A DNA stretch of 37,716 nucleotides, from IMG/VR virus record IMGVR_UViG_643692022_000005; one strand, given 5' to 3'. How positions within the stretch are numbered: position 1 is the first letter of the stretch; every line of letters begins with the position of its first letter. This DNA is from a virus (lineage: Duplodnaviria; Heunggongvirae; Uroviricota; Caudoviricetes). The translations under genes and the position numbers were made by a program. Shown one piece after another: positions 124 through 37,716 of this stretch. The notes under the pieces were generated by a model. That model was not told the DNA's origin. It did no database searches and saw nothing but the letters and a program-made list of their open reading frames with translations.

Positions 124-151
124 TTGACTAAGCAGGTGCTGACCGTATAAT
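124..151 (+). promoter_or_regulatory. Candidate sigma70 promoter of the tRNA gene
   Basis: TTGACT at 124-129 and TATAAT at 146-151 separated by 16 bp, followed by a GC-rich discriminator-like stretch, about 40 nt upstream of the tRNA 5-prime end. Read by eye, untested. Confidence 0.5.
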
Positions 152-190: not shown

Positions 191-267
<77 letters not shown>

Positions 268-282
268 TTTAGAATCAATCAC

Positions 283-1446
283 TTAAATGCTTCCTCCCGC
301 TTCTGCTTTTCCTTTGTGGGACAAATTTGGGACATCATCGTTAAAAATAGCGTCAATTTGCTTTGCGTGCTCGGTCAGGTGATTAGGTGCCAGGTGAGCA
401 TACCTGCGTACCATTTCGATTGATTCCCATCCTCCCATTTCCTGAAGCACAGATAACGGCACGCCAGCCTGAATAAGCCAGCTCGCCCATGTGTGTCTCA
501 GGTCATGAAAACGGAAATCCTCAATACCTGCTCGTCTGCACGCTGCCTTCCAGGCTCTGCCGTCATCGACTCGCATCTTTCTGACTGCAGGAGTGAGAGA
601 GCCATCAGGCCGTCTTGCTGGCTTTGTGTGTACGAACACAAATTTATGATGGTTGCCTATCTGGTCTCGCAGAACCTTACATGCAGTATCATTCAGCGCT
701 ACGCCAATAGCTCTGTTTGATTTACTGTCTTCCGGGTTGATCCACGCAACACGGCGCTGCATGTCTATCTGTTGCCACTCCAAATTGATAATGTTCGAAC
801 GCCGTAAACCTGTCGCCAGTGCAAACTTGACGACAGACTTTAATGGCTCCGGGCATTCATCAATCAGCCTTTTTGCTTCCTCCTTTTCCAGCCACCGCAC
901 ACGCTTGTTGCGTACTGTCGGTATCTTGATGACCGGTGCTTTCTCCAGCCATTTCCAGTCACGTTCTGCTGCTCTCAGAATGGCTTTCATCAGTGCAAGA
1001 TGCTTTGCCTTGGTGGCAGTGGTGACTGGTTTAGCGACATATTCAGGCACAGGTTTTCCTTTCTTCCTTGCCGCCTCTGCCTTTGCTTTCCATATCTCAA
1101 GGTGATTACGGTTATGCATCCTGCTGACGGCTGAGTAAATCCTTGCCTCAGTAATATCCTTTAGCCGCACACCTTCAAAATGCTCAAGCCAGAATCCCAT
1201 CCGGCCTTTATCTGTATCGAGCGATTTCTTATCTGATTTCTCTTCAATCCAGCGCAAGCATGCTTCTTCAAACGTCACATCTGGAAAATCACCAAGCCTG
1301 TCTACTCGCCAGAGCTCAGCTTTTCGTTTGTCGTGCAGCTCCTGCGCTTGCCGCTTGTCCTTTGTGCCAAGAGATTCCTTAATTCGCTTCCCGCCCGGGA
1401 GCGAGTACGAGGCGTACCATATTTCACCTCTGCGGAAGAGTGACAT
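283..1446 (-). CDS. int: Tyrosine-type site-specific integrase
   Basis: 387-aa ORF starting [14 protein letters not shown], with C-terminal [39 protein letters not shown] (tyrosine recombinase R-H-R-Y signature region); position beside a tRNA. Confidence 0.92.
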
Positions 1447-1673
1447 TTTCTTTCCTCTGTTATGCCATCACCCGCGCTCACCTGGACAGTATGCAGCGGA
1501 GACTGAAGCGCCGCAATGCAGGCTTGTCGTGTTGTGAGGTAAGGGGATTTATTCTTAGTGGGATCTTTGCGTGTTGCCTGCAAACGCCCTGTGCGTATCC
1601 AGTTAATGGCAGTCGGTCTGGATATCTTGAGAAAATGACAGGCCTCATCGAGTGTGAGGCTGTATGGCTCCAT
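1302..1673 (-). CDS. xis: Excisionase-like DNA-binding protein
   Basis: Start taken at the internal Met ([31 protein letters not shown]), whose ATG overlaps the upstream stop as TAATG. Helix-turn-helix-like N-terminus. The 3-prime end overlaps the integrase start by about 145 nt in another frame. Confidence 0.6.
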
Positions 1674-1978
1674 TATTTCACCTCTTGTTGTGACATTGTT
1701 GAAAAATGGATACCAGCTCGTTGCTGCCAGACGATCCAACCGAGAGTCATATCCCATGCCATGTATTCTTTATCGCCGTTTTTTGCTCTCCGACGATCTA
1801 CTAAGTCACCGAAACGCTTTTCCATGAATAATTCATAAGCTTCGCGTTCATCTGGTTCTACTTCCAGAGATAGGAGTGCGATTTCATAAGCACGGCGCTC
1901 AATATCGTCTCGCACGTCAAGGCTGCTGATACGCTCTTTAATTTCTTTAATCAGTTCTTTGTCGGTAAAAGTGGTCAT
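1673..1978 (-). CDS. Hypothetical phage early protein
   Basis: 101-aa ORF, co-directional and tightly packed with neighbours; no motif recognised. Confidence 0.6.
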   Translation of the reverse strand: MTTFTDKELIKEIKERISSLDVRDDIERRAYEIALLSLEVEPDEREAYELFMEKRFGDLVDRRRAKNGDKEYMAWDMTLGWIVWQQRAGIHFSTMSQQEVK

Positions 1979-2340
1979 TATGCTCCAGCCTCCGGTGCTT
2001 TTGGCATTACTGCCCAGTGAGTGATATTGACGTTTTCAAGGTCCCCGACCTGAAATGTCCACTGCCATTCTCCGGTTTCTTTTTGTCCCCAGGTGTACCA
2101 GAGAGAACGCCAGCCAATTAGCCAGCCTTCTCCGTTAGCATCGAATAACAAAACACTTTCATTTGCTGGTGGCAGTTCAGTTGACACTGGTATTACTTTG
2201 TTTTCCTGTGCTGCACATTTAGCTTCAAGCGCATCGAATTTACGCACTAGGTATTCAGCATCTGTTTCATTTACTTTCAGATCTCGCGGTACACATCTCC
2301 CACGAAGAAACCCTTCCATTTCGAAAACATTCATGCGCAT
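1978..2340 (-). CDS. DUF551-like phage protein
   Basis: 120-aa ORF with a Trp-rich C-terminal half ending ...NITHWAVMPKAPE, which resembles the DUF551 family from memory. Confidence 0.6.
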   Translation of the reverse strand: MRMNVFEMEGFLRGRCVPRDLKVNETDAEYLVRKFDALEAKCAAQENKVIPVSTELPPANESVLLFDANGEGWLIGWRSLWYTWGQKETGEWQWTFQVGDLENVNITHWAVMPKAPEAGA

Positions 2341-2867
2341 TTGCGTAACTCCGATAACTCGTTAAAGCGTTCCATAAACATCCCGTAGGCATGGCCCGGA
2401 GCCAGTGGAATCACGTTGAACATCTCTGTTGCCGGGATACCTTCCAGTACAGGCCAGAAAGAGCCATCATCAAGCCCGAGATCGCGGCGTTCGGTTGCCA
2501 GCATGATGAGATCGGCATATTTCACGGGCGTACTCATAACTGGGGGTAACCCGTATTTCTCACGGATTACGGCGTCTATTTTTTCTTCCATTTGTTTATA
2601 GTCAGGAAGAAGGCGTTTCAGTGGTGCGGGAATGTCCTGGCAATACGCTTCTGTTGCATCATGCATTAACGCTTCAAAAGCAAATTCCTGCGGCACCAGC
2701 TGGCTGCAAAGAACCGCATGTTGGGCGACGCTGTAGAAGTGCGAAAGATGACCGGCAAAGCGACAGATATTTGAAAGGGAAACCGCGATATCGTTAATAT
2801 CGATGTCGTCTTTATTTATCCTGTCATAATAAAAATGCTTCCCGGAAAAAGTTTTAATAAATGACAT
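2331..2867 (-). CDS. HD-domain phosphohydrolase (YfdR-like 5-prime-deoxynucleotidase)
   Basis: HD-type motifs (H...HD...E: SVAQHAVLCSQL, MHDATEAY). Start placed at the internal ATG (MSFIKTF) preceded by GGAG at 6-nt spacing; the track ORF runs to 2894 from a GTG. Confidence 0.75.
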   Translation of the reverse strand: MSFIKTFSGKHFYYDRINKDDIDINDIAVSLSNICRFAGHLSHFYSVAQHAVLCSQLVPQEFAFEALMHDATEAYCQDIPAPLKRLLPDYKQMEEKIDAVIREKYGLPPVMSTPVKYADLIMLATERRDLGLDDGSFWPVLEGIPATEMFNVIPLAPGHAYGMFMERFNELSELRKCA

Positions 2868-2994
2868 TTTGCTCTCCACGTATATGCGCTGCACCGCGCT
2901 GAATTCTGGTAAAAAGAATCCCTCACCATCCGGCGATTATTGAGTAAATTACGTTTCCATAAATGCCCCCGCAGGGGCATTTGCAGTAATGAAA

Positions 2995-24961: not shown

Positions 24962-26441
24962 CACCATTCCGTCGAATACGCTGGTTCCGCTGTTTTATGC
25001 GGAAATGGATAACCAGGCGGCGAATACTGCACAGGACAGCGGGGCATCATTGCTGATTGGTCACGCCAATAACGGTGCAGAGATTGTTGCCAACAGTCTG
25101 GTGCTGATGCCGTCGGCAGACTATGCACGCCAGATTTGTGGTGCGGGAAGTCAGCTGGCGCGTATGGTCGAGGCTTATCGCCAGACCGACCCGTTTGGCG
25201 AGCTGTATGTGATTGCCGTTCCGGAAGCCACAGGCGCGGCGGCAACGGTTACGCTGACGGTGACCGGGGCGGCAACCGAAACAGGCACGGTGAATGTTTA
25301 TGTGGGACGTACCCGCGTGCAGGCACCGGTGACCAACGGCGATAACGTCGCGATGATTGCCGGCAGTATCCAGGATGCCATCAATGCCGTTCCGGCCCTG
25401 CCGTTTACGGCCTCATCTTCGGCTGGCGTGGTTACACTGACCGCGCGTCATAAGGGGCTTTGCGGGAATGAAATTCCTGTCAGCCTCAATTACTACGGCT
25501 TTGGTGGGGGCGAAGTGCTGCCAGCGGGCGTACAGATTGCCGTGGCGACGGGTACCGCCGGAACGGGCGCTCCTGTTCTCACCGGTGCGGTGGCTGCAAT
25601 GGCGGATGAGCCGTTTGATTATATCGGCCTGCCGTTCAACGACACGGCCTCCGTTAACACGCTGGTGACCGAGATGAACGATACCAGCGGTCGCTGGAGC
25701 TATGCGCGTCAGCTGTATGGTCATGTGTATTCGGCAAAGATCGGCACGCTGTCAGAACTGGTGACCGCAGGTGGCCAGTTTAACCAGCAGCACATTACCC
25801 TGGCGGGGTACGAAAAAGACACCCAGACGCCTGCCGACGAGCTGGCGGCAAGCCGTACCGCCCGCGCAGCGGTGTTTATCCGCAACGATCCGGCACGTCC
25901 CACGCAGACCGGTGAGCTGGTGGGTATGCTGCCTGCACCGAAGGGGAAACGGTTCACGATGACCGAACAACAGACCCTGCTGTCTCATGGCGTGGCAACG
26001 GCGTATGTCGAAAGCGGGGTACTGCGCATTCAGCGTGATGTTACCACGTACAGGAAAAACGCTTACGGGGTTGCGGATAACAGCTACCTCGACAGTGAGA
26101 CACTGCATACCAGCGCGTATGTACTGCGCAAACTGAAATCCGTCATTACCAGTAAGTACGGGCGTCACAAGCTTGCCAGTGACGGTACCCGCTTTGGTCC
26201 CGGTCAGGCGATTGTCACCCCGGCGGTGATCAAAGGGGAACTGCTGGCAACCTACCGTCAGCTTGAGCGTGCGGGGATCGTGGAAAACTACGAACTGTTT
26301 AAGCAGTACCTGGTTGTGGAGCGTGATGCCAGCGATCCGAACCGCCTGAACACGCTGTTCCCGCCTGACTATGTTAACCAGTTGCGTGTCTTTGCCGTGG
26401 TTAACCAGTTCCGTCTTCAGTATTCAGAGGAGTCTGCATAA
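24945..26441 (+). CDS. Contractile tail sheath protein (Mu gpL-like)
   Basis: 498 aa; size and position (followed by tube, chaperones, tape measure). Confidence 0.85.
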   Translation: MTMSFNTIPSNTLVPLFYAEMDNQAANTAQDSGASLLIGHANNGAEIVANSLVLMPSADYARQICGAGSQLARMVEAYRQTDPFGELYVIAVPEATGAAATVTLTVTGAATETGTVNVYVGRTRVQAPVTNGDNVAMIAGSIQDAINAVPALPFTASSSAGVVTLTARHKGLCGNEIPVSLNYYGFGGGEVLPAGVQIAVATGTAGTGAPVLTGAVAAMADEPFDYIGLPFNDTASVNTLVTEMNDTSGRWSYARQLYGHVYSAKIGTLSELVTAGGQFNQQHITLAGYEKDTQTPADELAASRTARAAVFIRNDPARPTQTGELVGMLPAPKGKRFTMTEQQTLLSHGVATAYVESGVLRIQRDVTTYRKNAYGVADNSYLDSETLHTSAYVLRKLKSVITSKYGRHKLASDGTRFGPGQAIVTPAVIKGELLATYRQLERAGIVENYELFKQYLVVERDASDPNRLNTLFPPDYVNQLRVFAVVNQFRLQYSEESA

Positions 26442-27215: not shown

Positions 27216-29040
27216 ATTTGAGCTTAAGGCGTTGATCACCGGTGTCGACAGGCTTTCTCCCGCGCTGTCGAAAATGCAAAAGAAAATCCGGGGATTTAAA
27301 CGCCAGGCGGAAGAAGCGTCACAGGGTGGGCTGGCGCTTGGTGGCGGACTGGCAGCGGGTCTGACGCTTTCCCTGAAATCTTATGCCGATCAGGAAAACG
27401 CCGCCACCGGGCTGAAAGTTGCCATGATGGATGCGAACGGCGAGGTCGGAAAGCGCTTTCAGGACATCAATAAACTGGCTATTGGCCTGGGTAACCAGCT
27501 ACCCGGTACAACGGCTGATTTCCAGAACATGATGCAGATGCTGGTGCGTCAGGGGATCCCGGCAGAAAACATTCTTGGCGGTGTGGGTAAAGCGACAGCT
27601 TATCTTGCGGTACAACTGAAAAAAACACCGGAAGCGGCTGCCGAGTTTGCTGCAAAGATGCAGGATGCTACCGGAACGGCGTCAGAAGACATGATGGGGC
27701 TGTTCGACACTATCCAGAAGGCGTTTTATCTGGGCGTTGACGATACCAACATGTTGTCCTTCTTCACTAAAACCAGCTCTGTTCTGAAGATGGTGAACAA
27801 GGACGGTCTTCAGGCTGCACAGAGCCTTGCCCCCATCAGCGTCATGATGGATCAGATGGGGATGAACGGGGAGTCGGCAGGTAATGCCCTGCGAAAAGTT
27901 ATCCAGTCCGGATTAAGTGTTAAGAAAATCAGGGACGTCAATAAAGTCATGGCCCGCCAGAAACTCGGGGTACAGCTCGATTTTACTGACGGCAAAGGAA
28001 GTTTTGGCGGTCTTGATAACATGTTTAAGCAACTGGCAAAGTTGCGAAAACTGACTGACGTTAAGCGAACTAATGTACTTAAGGCAATATTTGGTGATGA
28101 TGCCGAAACCATTCAGGTGGTCAATGCGCTGATCGATAAAGGAAAGGATGGTTACGATCAGATCCAGCAGAAGATGAATAAACAGGCCAGCCTGAATAAA
28201 CGTGTTCAGGCACAGCTTGGTACGCTGTCCAACCTGTGGGAGGCAATGACGGGGACCGCAACTAACGGCCTTGCAGCTATTGGCGGCGCATTTTCTGGTG
28301 ACGCTAAAAATATCACGCAATGGCTGGGGGAGTTGGGGGAGAAATTCACGAAGTTTGCGGATGAAAATCCCCGGGTTATTCGCGGCGTCGTCGGGCTTGC
28401 TGCCGGTCTTGCGATTCTGAAACTGGGATTGATGGGCGTTGGCGGTGCCATCAGTATTGTCAGCAGGATCATGTCGATGACGCCGATTGGCATGATTGCG
28501 ACGGCGATAGCCCTGGCTGCGGGATTAATTATCACTAACTGGGATGTTGTCGGACCTTATTTTAAGAAACTCTGGGAAACCATTGGTCCTTATTTTGAGG
28601 CTGGCTGGGAACTTCTGAAGAAAGTTTTTGCCTGGTCGCCGCTGGGGATGGTGATCAATAACTGGGGACCGGTTGTTAAGTGGTTTCAGGATATGTGGGA
28701 CAAGCTGAAGCCAATTATTGAGTGGTTTACCGACAGTTCCGGTGACACGGTCGATGCCATTAACTCTGCGCAGTGGGGCGCGGGTGCTTATGATGCTTAT
28801 GGGACGGGAATACCGGCGCGGGGATACACACCTTATCCGGCGGTAGATCCGGCTCAGTCAAACAACGCCTCCGATGCCACAGGCCCGAATCCCTTCATGA
28901 TTAACAAAGCTTCTGCGCCAAAAGTTGATGGTGAGATCAAGGTCTCTTTTGTGAATTCGCCTCCGGGTATGCGGGTTATGGAAACGCGATCCAGCGGTAT
29001 TGATGTCAGCCATGATGTTGGCTATACGCGGTTCAGGTAG
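27208..29040 (+). CDS. Tail tape measure protein
   Basis: 610 aa, helical N-terminal half and Gly/Ala-rich hydrophobic segment; position after the chaperones. Confidence 0.85.
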   Translation: MAEFELKALITGVDRLSPALSKMQKKIRGFKRQAEEASQGGLALGGGLAAGLTLSLKSYADQENAATGLKVAMMDANGEVGKRFQDINKLAIGLGNQLPGTTADFQNMMQMLVRQGIPAENILGGVGKATAYLAVQLKKTPEAAAEFAAKMQDATGTASEDMMGLFDTIQKAFYLGVDDTNMLSFFTKTSSVLKMVNKDGLQAAQSLAPISVMMDQMGMNGESAGNALRKVIQSGLSVKKIRDVNKVMARQKLGVQLDFTDGKGSFGGLDNMFKQLAKLRKLTDVKRTNVLKAIFGDDAETIQVVNALIDKGKDGYDQIQQKMNKQASLNKRVQAQLGTLSNLWEAMTGTATNGLAAIGGAFSGDAKNITQWLGELGEKFTKFADENPRVIRGVVGLAAGLAILKLGLMGVGGAISIVSRIMSMTPIGMIATAIALAAGLIITNWDVVGPYFKKLWETIGPYFEAGWELLKKVFAWSPLGMVINNWGPVVKWFQDMWDKLKPIIEWFTDSSGDTVDAINSAQWGAGAYDAYGTGIPARGYTPYPAVDPAQSNNASDATGPNPFMINKASAPKVDGEIKVSFVNSPPGMRVMETRSSGIDVSHDVGYTRFR

Positions 29041-29121
29041 TGTACAAAATGATTAATGTGTTTTTGTCTGGCATAATTTGGGTTTTCAACTTTAAGTAGT
29101 TAATATAATCACTCCTTACAA

Positions 29122-36567: not shown

Positions 36568-36597
36568 GGCGGCATTGCCGCCTTTGTTTTATTTTAT
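36568..36597. terminator. Bidirectional rho-independent terminator
   Basis: Hairpin GGCGGCATTGCCGCC flanked by AAAAA upstream and TTTGTTTTATTTT downstream; overlaps the stop of the convergent acyltransferase gene. Confidence 0.55.
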
Positions 36598-37716
36598 CTT
36601 GTATCTTTTTTCAATTGTATTATACAGGATAGCGGAAAGTATAATTGCTAATGTTATCGCCCCAAACTGCATCAATATAAAATATCTAGCTGATGTTTGC
36701 TCTAGGTTGATAAATTTGCTGTAAGAATTGAATGTAATGTTAAGCGATAACTGATGTACTAAATACAAACTGTAACTTATGATACCAATATTCGATATGC
36801 TTCTTTTAGAGAATATAGACGGCCTGGATGCGATAAACGCTATGAAAAATATTGATGTCGCGCAGAACATTTCGAATTCATATACTTTAAAATCACCAAA
36901 AATCGAATATAAAAAGAGTAATAGCATTACGATCCACAAAGCATATTTCAAATAATTGTTTGCAGGTTTCTTTATGTACGAAGCAATAAACCCTGTCAGG
37001 AAGTATGTCCACATTATTTGTTCGTTCTGATATCCAAGATATATAATTATCAGAGCTAAAGGTATTAAAGATATTCTTAACGGTTTAATAGCAAATGCAC
37101 AAGCAAGAAATGGAACTGCTGCATAATATTTCCATTCGTAAGGTAACGTCCATGTAACAATATTAAGGCTCCAGTCCCATATTGCACCAACCCTAATCCC
37201 ACCGCCCCAGAAACCAAATCCATAAACACTACGAATGACTGTCATTATATCATCAATAGTTTTTATTTCCCCGTATCTCTGGAACATGAAAATTGCAAAA
37301 ACTATTGTAGAAACAACAATGTATGCAGGAAGTAATCTATAAATCCTTTTTTGGAAAAAAGAAATATCGAAAATTCCCTTTTTTATAGTGGCTGAAAATA
37401 AAAAACCTGTTAAGCAAAAGAATATGGATACTCCAAACGCGCCCATTTTTTCAAATGCGTACGCTGGCTGAATATTCATATATGGTGATTTTAATCCTAT
37501 AGCAGCAATTACAGTGTATGAGTGGTTAACGAAAACTAATAGACACGCAACCCCCCTTAAGCCCTCTAAACATAAGTCATTGTGGCTTCCAATAGGGGAT
37601 ATATCAACTATCTTATTAATAAGAAAACAAATAAATGTTGCGAATAAAATAAAAGATGATGCATATATGGTATTGTGAACACTAAGATATGGTAATAAAG
37701 TAGCAAATGTATCCAT
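36589..37716 (-). CDS. Acyltransferase-3 family membrane protein (candidate O-antigen acetyltransferase); 5-prime end at or beyond the window edge
   Basis: 375 aa in the window, about 10 hydrophobic segments, AT-rich; resembles OafA/Oac-type acyltransferases from memory. The ATG is the last three bases of the window, so the true start may lie outside. Confidence 0.7.
   Translation of the reverse strand: MDTFATLLPYLSVHNTIYASSFILFATFICFLINKIVDISPIGSHNDLCLEGLRGVACLLVFVNHSYTVIAAIGLKSPYMNIQPAYAFEKMGAFGVSIFFCLTGFLFSATIKKGIFDISFFQKRIYRLLPAYIVVSTIVFAIFMFQRYGEIKTIDDIMTVIRSVYGFGFWGGGIRVGAIWDWSLNIVTWTLPYEWKYYAAVPFLACAFAIKPLRISLIPLALIIIYLGYQNEQIMWTYFLTGFIASYIKKPANNYLKYALWIVMLLLFLYSIFGDFKVYEFEMFCATSIFFIAFIASRPSIFSKRSISNIGIISYSLYLVHQLSLNITFNSYSKFINLEQTSARYFILMQFGAITLAIILSAILYNTIEKRYKIK

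Follow-up and report, generated by a model that had tools for sequence, protein, structure and literature searches.

An excisionase gene that overlaps its integrase gene by 145 nucleotides in a P22/epsilon34-type phage module

The window analysed here is a stretch of 37,716 nucleotides from a virus of the class Caudoviricetes (IMG/VR record IMGVR_UViG_643692022_000005). Towards its left end lie a tRNA-Arg gene, an integrase gene (int), an excisionase gene (xis) and a yfdT-like open reading frame, the last three on the minus strand (Table 1). The 387 codons of int encode a protein that displays the catalytic domain of tyrosine integrases at residues 184–355 (Pfam PF00589, E=1.5e-45). This domain, the length of about 387 aa and the adjoining tRNA-Arg(tct) gene place the integrase in the IntD/argU subgroup, and its RefSeq homologue is named intD. 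An identical arrangement of tRNA-Arg and intD is seen in RefSeq E. coli loci. A second copy of the tRNA 3′ end is absent from the window, the P arm (attR side) lying outside it.

Table 1. Coordinates of the features discussed in the text (positions in the window)
Feature	Position	Strand	Description and basis
tRNA-Arg (anticodon tct)	191–267	+	attachment-site tRNA, 16 nt from the int stop; ARAGORN
int	283–1446	−	tyrosine integrase, IntD/argU type, 387 aa; PF00589
xis	1302–1673	−	P22/epsilon34-type excisionase (recombination directionality factor), 123 aa plus stop
Dual-coding segment	1302–1446	−	145 nt; Xis residues 77–123 plus stop / Int residues 1–48
int codon 41 (CGA, Arg)	1322–1324	−	middle base fixes the end of xis; DNA alignment, per-codon table
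Xis helix, residues 91–101	1371–1403	−	only helix predicted in the tail, pLDDT about 50–59; AlphaFold2
Mosaic junction, about 1410	1405–1415		after int codon 12, Xis residue about 88; identity in 100-nt bins and alignment
int Shine-Dalgarno AGAGGAAAG	1450–1458	−	inside the xis coding sequence, 3 nt before the int ATG
xis Shine-Dalgarno AGAGGTG	1679–1685	−	5 nt before ATG 1673; sequence
Upstream yfdT-like ORF	1673–1978	−	101 aa; ORF list; PHROG 660 (function not assigned there)

The helix-turn-helix (HTH) domain of the excisionase is found in a single open reading frame, that of xis. This gene runs from the ATG at 1673 (N-terminus MEPYS...) to a stop codon at 1302–1304, so that its 3′ part is read from the same DNA as the beginning of int. 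A sequence-only reading of the window had placed this overlap at about 145 nt in a different frame, and the figure is exact: the shared segment consists of one nucleotide, 47 sense codons and the stop codon, which also agrees with the 48 codons given in that reading if the stop is counted. The second codon position of xis coincides with the third codon position of int.

The two genes have separate starts. An in-frame ATG further upstream, at 1757, would give a protein of 151 aa. Nevertheless, the ATG at 1673 is the conserved, real start of xis, because it is preceded at 5 nt by AGAGGTG, because it overlaps with the TAA stop of the yfdT-like ORF (named after its RefSeq homologue) as TAATG, and because the homologues agree: those located behind unrelated upstream genes all begin at the equivalent position. 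The P22 entry X04052 marks a ribosome-binding site of xis at the corresponding position and lists the equivalent of AGAGGAAAG as the ribosome-binding site of int.

The N-terminal part of the xis product matches Pfam PF12728 (HTH_17) at residues 6–36 (E=2.5e-8, 34.5 bits against a cut-off of 27). The whole protein is similar to the PHROG 2907 profile, 'excisionase' (E=4.6e-46), with residues 1–116 aligned to profile positions 2–117 of 117; the family profile itself therefore reaches into the overlap. Together with the HTH_17 domain at the N-terminus, this full-length similarity, tail included, and the overlap of 124 or 145 nt with the gene of a 386–390-aa integrase assign the protein to the P22-type excisionases. 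Likewise, the module was recognised as belonging to the P22/SfV/epsilon34 int-xis family by megablast and by a protein search in the phage collection. We consider it about 85% probable that the locus is the usual int-xis module of a temperate phage of the P22/epsilon34 type, inserted at tRNA-Arg(tct).

An AlphaFold2 model of Xis, built from an alignment of 45 sequences, divides the protein into two parts. Residues 1–60 are predicted to adopt a winged helix (pLDDT 77–90), with a strand-helix-helix-wing succession at residues 5–57. This is an excisionase-type fold: the best match in the PDB is Xis of the mycobacteriophage Pukovnik (4j2n; TM-score 0.73–0.76 on the target), and further matches are BldC and the N-terminal domains of the MerR family. 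A search for a solved structure of a close relative returned only the weak match to Pukovnik Xis. The remainder of the chain is modelled as a low-confidence linker (residues 62–90), a single helix (residues 91–101) and a disordered C-terminal end, the pLDDT of the tail being 45–59. The helix contains the invariant L98 and adjoins the invariant L102 and T106; given the low confidence of the model in this region, however, no structural role of the tail can be read from it. By BLASTP, similarity to lambda Xis was not detected (E=13), and the protein is not a member of the lambda Xis family at the sequence level.

The long overlap is conserved. Among the 185 related loci in which both genes are readable, its length is always 124 or 145 nt. 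These comprise 102 loci from phage, genome and IMG/VR collections, all of them with one of the two lengths; 80 further IMG/VR loci, all with a Xis of 123 aa and an overlap of 145 nt; and three RefSeq E. coli loci, with uninterrupted ORFs and again 145 nt. The two scans of viral contigs yielded close relatives only, the distant relatives coming from the phage collection. The 124-nt class, with a Xis of 114–116 aa, includes P22 (X04052, xis 1083–1433, annotated as 'aa 1-116', and int 43–1206; also BK000583), SfII, SfV and HK75, the last with an N-terminal Xis part 45% identical to that of the window. The 145-nt class, with a Xis of 122–123 aa, includes epsilon34 (gp24/gp23), the E. coli argU prophages and APSE-1 (P40/P38), whose N-terminal Xis part is 41% identical. 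The integrases follow the same division, that of the window being 83–94% identical to those of the 145-nt class and 71–74% identical to those of the P22/SfII type. A similar picture was obtained with 101 homologues from a large protein database, most of which measure 114–116 or 122–123 aa; their hosts include Salmonella, Citrobacter, Cronobacter, Serratia, Xenorhabdus, Yersinia and Erwinia. The gene table of UAB_Phi20 also contains a 124-nt xis-int overlap (PMC4837284). By comparison, int (27812–28882) and xis (28860–29078) of lambda (NC_001416) share 23 nt, in line with the earlier remark that the overlap in the window is the longer one. The overlap is thus the norm of the family and was already known, since the P22 sequence was deposited in 1986 and the annotations of APSE-1 and epsilon34 show the 145-nt form. 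The suggestion that the excisionase of the window is C-terminally extended relative to its relatives is not supported, as every relative overlaps int by 124 or 145 nt.

A frame extending this far into the next gene could also arise from a sequencing frameshift, or xis could be a pseudogene lacking its true C-terminus. The annotation of three RefSeq genomes points in this direction, PGAP having labelled the gene 'helix-turn-helix domain-containing protein; incomplete; missing C-terminus'. However, the very same three loci contain intact ORFs with an identical 145-nt overlap, and just two geometries occur among 185 independent loci, which stem from phages, prophages and metagenomes. The sequence-only reading had proposed that homologues ending well before the int start would indicate a frameshift or a shorter true product; among the 185 loci there is no xis homologue that ends ahead of int. 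With the ORFs intact in all of these loci, we rejected this explanation, whose probability is close to nil.

The existence of two overlap lengths is accounted for by a single position of int. In the window, codon 41 of int is CGA (Arg) and is read as GAA in the xis frame, which then continues for seven more codons to the TAG at 1302–1304, within int codons 47–48. When codon 41 is CTA or CTG (Leu), the xis frame reads TAA or TGA, and the resulting Xis has 116 aa. Arginine is found at this position in all ten sequences of the 145-nt class and leucine in all six of the 124-nt class. Consequently, the Xis of the window is only seven residues longer than a P22-type Xis. The pair is a small and clean example of dual coding, where a single nucleotide of int codon 41 determines how long Xis becomes. 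Across the 185 loci the length of the Xis tail (116 versus 123 aa) tracks the type of Int without exception. Judging from sequence divergence, both classes are old, because each holds a relative with just 41–45% identity in the N-terminal part of Xis (APSE-1 and HK75, respectively).

In a rival explanation, the tail would be unselected read-through, the functional Xis consisting of some 60–75 residues followed by an extension that is tolerated but useless and that ends in int at whichever stop the Int sequence first permits. Lambda Xis has just 72 aa, and the modelled tail is mostly coil with low pLDDT. Moreover, when the synonymous codons of int were shuffled 20,000 times with the Int amino acids kept, 52% of the shuffles left the xis frame free of stops for 47 codons or more, and stop-free runs of 36–56 codons occur elsewhere in the equivalent frame of int. 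The open frame of a single sequence is thus no more than chance would give, and the case has therefore to rest on comparison with other sequences. Owing to the frame relation, a change that is synonymous in int hits the second codon position of xis; if the tail matters, the overlap should therefore show a lower synonymous divergence of int.

This was indeed observed. Divergence was measured in 16 diverse sequences as the fraction of int codons with identical amino acid that differ; the values are raw fractions among related sequences, in which kinship is ignored. For codons 2–41, overlapped in both classes, it is 0.22 in the 145-nt class and 0.33 in the 124-nt class, as compared with 0.46–0.49 and 0.48–0.51, respectively, in the rest of int (codons 50–110 and 50–387). 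Codons 42–48, which are overlapped in the 145-nt class only, provide an internal control: here the divergence is 0.30 in the 145-nt class and 0.48 in the 124-nt class. Overall, the synonymous divergence of int is two to three times lower through the whole overlap and normal again after it, and the first window of int ranks lowest or second lowest among about 350 sliding windows. A lowered synonymous rate at the 5′ end of a gene can have other causes. With 91 unique int sequences, the divergence is lowered in every 10-codon bin of the overlap and not merely in the first codons. In this larger set, which is composed mostly of close relatives, the control is weaker, codons 42–47 of the 124-nt class giving 0.026 versus about 0.05 for the rest of int.

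Individual positions lead to the same conclusion. The third positions of four int codons are invariant in all 16 diverse sequences, namely those of Gly/Asn/Ser7, Ile/Phe/Val22, Leu26, a residue with six-fold degenerate codons, and Asp30; in the xis frame they encode V/M83, L98, L102 and T106, respectively. The third positions of codons 3–6, 17, 21, 32 and 39 are nearly invariant in the same sequences. In an alignment of 48 sequences, the tail residues G86, L98, L102 and T106 of Xis are invariant, so that invariant third positions of int coincide with invariant Xis residues at L98, L102 and T106. Useless read-through would also leave unexplained why xis has only two discrete ends in relatives down to 41% identity and why the PHROG excisionase profile runs to position 117; we consider it very unlikely. 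As far as these comparisons of codons can tell, the Xis tail is a selected coding sequence and both frames of the overlap are under selection, because the synonymous divergence of int is reduced and degenerate third positions of int are invariant.

The long overlap had further been taken to imply tight translational coupling, in which the translation of int would depend on, or be set by, that of xis. The Shine-Dalgarno sequence and the ATG of int are both located inside xis, and ribosomes translating xis must cross them. In addition, TAATG overlaps link the upstream genes to one another, as seen at 1673 between the yfdT-like ORF and xis, so that coupling is used elsewhere in this operon. The geometry of the xis-int pair is nonetheless wrong for termination-reinitiation: in such pairs the stop codon lies at the start codon or within a few nucleotides of it, whereas the stop of xis is about 145 nt downstream of the int ATG, its three bases (1302–1304) being 142–144 nt beyond the first base of that ATG (1446). 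Furthermore, int is preceded by its own strong Shine-Dalgarno sequence, which in the minimum-energy fold of the RNA is found in a loop. Significant structure hiding the int ribosome-binding site was not detected around the int start (z = −1.31), and masking by RNA structure as a coupling device was rejected on these grounds. Finally, coupling needs a short overlap only, and it leaves the selection on the tail codons unexplained. Tight coupling thus appears unlikely, and the claim that the overlap implies it is not borne out.

The arrangement would rather correspond to interleaved translation of two genes, xis and int each using its own Shine-Dalgarno sequence and ATG, with the ribosomes that translate xis crossing the start of int and stopping 145 nt inside it. 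The two genes are presumably co-transcribed, since they point the same way and close a series of ORFs that are tightly packed or overlap. A search of the minus strand between 100 and 2400 did not reveal a sigma-70-like promoter, and xis does not contain a cII-type TTGC-N6-TTGC site, the sole match in the window being at 26382, far from xis. A promoter comparable to lambda PI inside xis, considered as a candidate, was rejected, as neither a sigma-70-like nor a cII-type site was found there. The overlap may also influence the Int:Xis ratio.

As to the protein, Xis may be viewed as a winged-helix DNA-binding domain (residues 1–60) followed by a flexible basic tail (residues 62–123), the last 47 residues of which are read off the DNA that encodes Int residues 1–48, in another frame. 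P22 Xis has been purified and was found to bind and bend att DNA, according to the passage of PMC7498355 that refers to Mattis et al. (2008). On the model of lambda Xis, the window protein would use its N-terminal domain to bind the P arm of the attachment site and to bend it, and its putative role would be to stimulate excision by Int. The tail probably makes protein contacts; if the analogy extends this far, it may touch the arm-binding domain of Int or a neighbouring Xis and thereby drive excision.

Comparison of the DNA with that of related phages uncovered a mosaic junction close to position 1410. From the junction rightwards through xis, the window is at least 98% identical to SfII and SfV, while to the left it is of the argU/IntD type. 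The junction falls inside the overlap, the window having exchanged int and the distal tail for those of the argU type, so that the distal tail of Xis moves along with int. This raises the possibility that the overlap serves as a linkage device. The distal tail with its L98/L102 helix, which is the portion of Xis expected to touch Int, and the arm-binding domain of Int are encoded by the same bases, and mosaic recombination therefore cannot part the Xis tail from its cognate Int. If so, the window would offer a natural example, in which a DNA-binding domain of the SfII type is joined to a tail and an Int of the argU type. The idea presupposes a contact between tail and Int, which is putative in P22-type Xis, and we regard it as speculative and on balance doubtful.

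The main use of these observations lies in annotation, where a long overlap on the same strand looks like an error. The RefSeq pipeline marks intact homologues as pseudogenes, and the record of phage Kati omits the xis gene altogether. Knowing that overlaps of 124 or 145 nt are to be expected allows excisionases to be called correctly in prophages of the argU and thrW types, and correct calls of xis matter for judging the ability of a prophage to excise.

The module can be compared with several known systems. In lambda, xis is likewise located directly upstream of int and overlaps it, and its product, which would do the same job, is also a small DNA-bending protein of the winged-helix type whose C-terminal tail is flexible. 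The tail of lambda Xis contacts the N-terminal domain of Int. Lambda nonetheless differs from the window in the short overlap (23 nt) and the smaller Xis (72 aa), which has no detectable sequence similarity to that of the window. P22 is much closer. Residues 1–74 of its Xis are 92% identical to those of the window, and the start, the frame relation and the location of the int Shine-Dalgarno sequence inside xis are the same. However, P22 integrates at thrW and not at argU, its Int (387 aa) is 71% identical to that of the window, and its overlap is limited to 124 nt, since Leu41 (CTG) yields a TGA in the xis frame and a Xis of 116 aa without the last seven residues.

The Shigella phages SfII, SfIV and SfV resemble the window closely in the DNA to the right of about 1410, early genes included (94–100% identity in 100-nt bins, at least 98% through xis), and residues 1–74 of Xis are 100% identical in SfII and SfIV and 97% identical in SfV. 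Unlike the window, they have a P22-type int (74% identical) and a 124-nt overlap, and in GenBank the xis of the SfII/SfV phages begins at an upstream ATG, giving coding sequences of 435–444 nt. The Hamiltonella phage APSE-1, in contrast, shares the 145-nt overlap, and the end of its Xis tail (...TTNEELNYGE) closely resembles that of the window, even though the N-terminal part of its Xis has diverged to the 41% identity mentioned above. It differs in its distant host, an aphid symbiont, and in the start of P40, which is placed 12 nt further upstream in GenBank. Finally, epsilon34 differs from the window in its unrelated upstream early genes and in the 5′ part of xis, which is of the SfII type in the window. 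Its Xis residues 1–74 and its Int are 89% and 85% identical to those of the window, respectively. As in the window, its Xis has 123 aa (372-nt coding sequence), its Int has 387 aa, the two genes overlap by exactly 145 nt, and the annotation of its attP notes a similarity to the 3′ end of argU.

A mosaic junction lies at about position 1405-1415 of the window, within the xis/int overlap, as comparison of segment 1410-3000 with segment 283-1410 shows. To the right of the junction, through the excisionase gene xis, identity to SfII and SfV is at least 98%, and the values per 100-nt bin lie at 94-100% rightwards as far as position 2950. To its left, in contrast, the integrase gene int, together with the distal Xis tail, is of the argU/IntD type and shares 63-84% identity with SfII. 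In the bin 1351-1450, identity to the class of loci with a 145-nt overlap (epsilon34, APSE-1 and E. coli argU prophages) reaches 94-97%.

Upstream of xis, minimal overlaps link the small early genes to one another and to xis itself (see table). This is the classical coupling geometry, from which the xis/int pair differs. At the integrase end of the window, a near-consensus sigma-70 promoter located ~40 nt upstream of the tRNA-Arg gene is presumably that gene's own. At the far end, the ORF matching an O-acetyltransferase is likely to be a serotype-conversion gene near the other end of the prophage; a search across the window for attR, in which the tRNA 3' end would recur, found none.

Features at the window ends and overlaps in the early gene chain
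Feature	Position	Strand	Detail
Near-consensus sigma-70 promoter	124-151	+	TTGACT, 16-nt spacer, TATAAT; 11/12 matches
TAATG overlap, yfdT-like ORF / xis	1673		
TAATG overlap, ORF 1978..2340 / yfdT-like ORF	1976-1980		
10-nt overlap, ORF 2331..2894 (5'-deoxynucleotidase, yfdR-like) / next ORF	2331-2340		
ORF matching O-acetyltransferase / O-antigen acetylase	36589-37716	-	PHROG 3333, E=1.4e-35

At three RefSeq E. coli loci with a homologous xis, L105 (NZ_CP007491; 1888-2067), L106 (NZ_CP148573; 1625-1804) and L107 (NC_013353; 1625-1804), PGAP calls xis a pseudogene, worded as 'helix-turn-helix domain-containing protein; incomplete; missing C-terminus'. All three ORFs are intact, with 151 codons counted from the annotated start, and each overlaps int by 145 nt, as in the window. 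The pseudogene label looks like a systematic annotation artefact, brought about by the long overlap. In the record of phage Kati, xis carries no annotation at all. In the GenBank entries for SfII (1607-2041 of the locus) and SfV (1607-2050), xis begins at an ATG further upstream, so that its CDS measures 435 and 444 nt, respectively, and reaches ~90 nt into the preceding gene; it is the start conserved in the family, as opposed to these upstream ATGs, that matches the 116-aa product of P22. The records JAEWTL010000063 ('MAG: Bacillota bacterium') and CACSKA010000001 ('Chryseobacterium sp. 18061') carry enterobacterial-type xis-int modules with Xis proteins 85-92% identical to that of the window, and are probably mis-binned or contaminated assemblies.

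Duplicated and decayed copies of the module were also encountered. The chromosomes CP178302 and CP182556 each hold two int-xis copies ~13 kb apart, both with an SfII-type int, one with a full xis and the other with xis truncated to residues 36-74, which suggests tandem or nested prophage remnants. At four further loci (L017 and L018, from E. coli CP178306 and CP178308, together with L016 and L019), xis has lost its N-terminal DNA-binding part and retains residues from ~31-45 onwards. The reading frame of the tail has stayed open as far as the same stop, presumably held in place by int. These decayed copies resemble the remnant of xisD in DLP12 of E. coli K-12.
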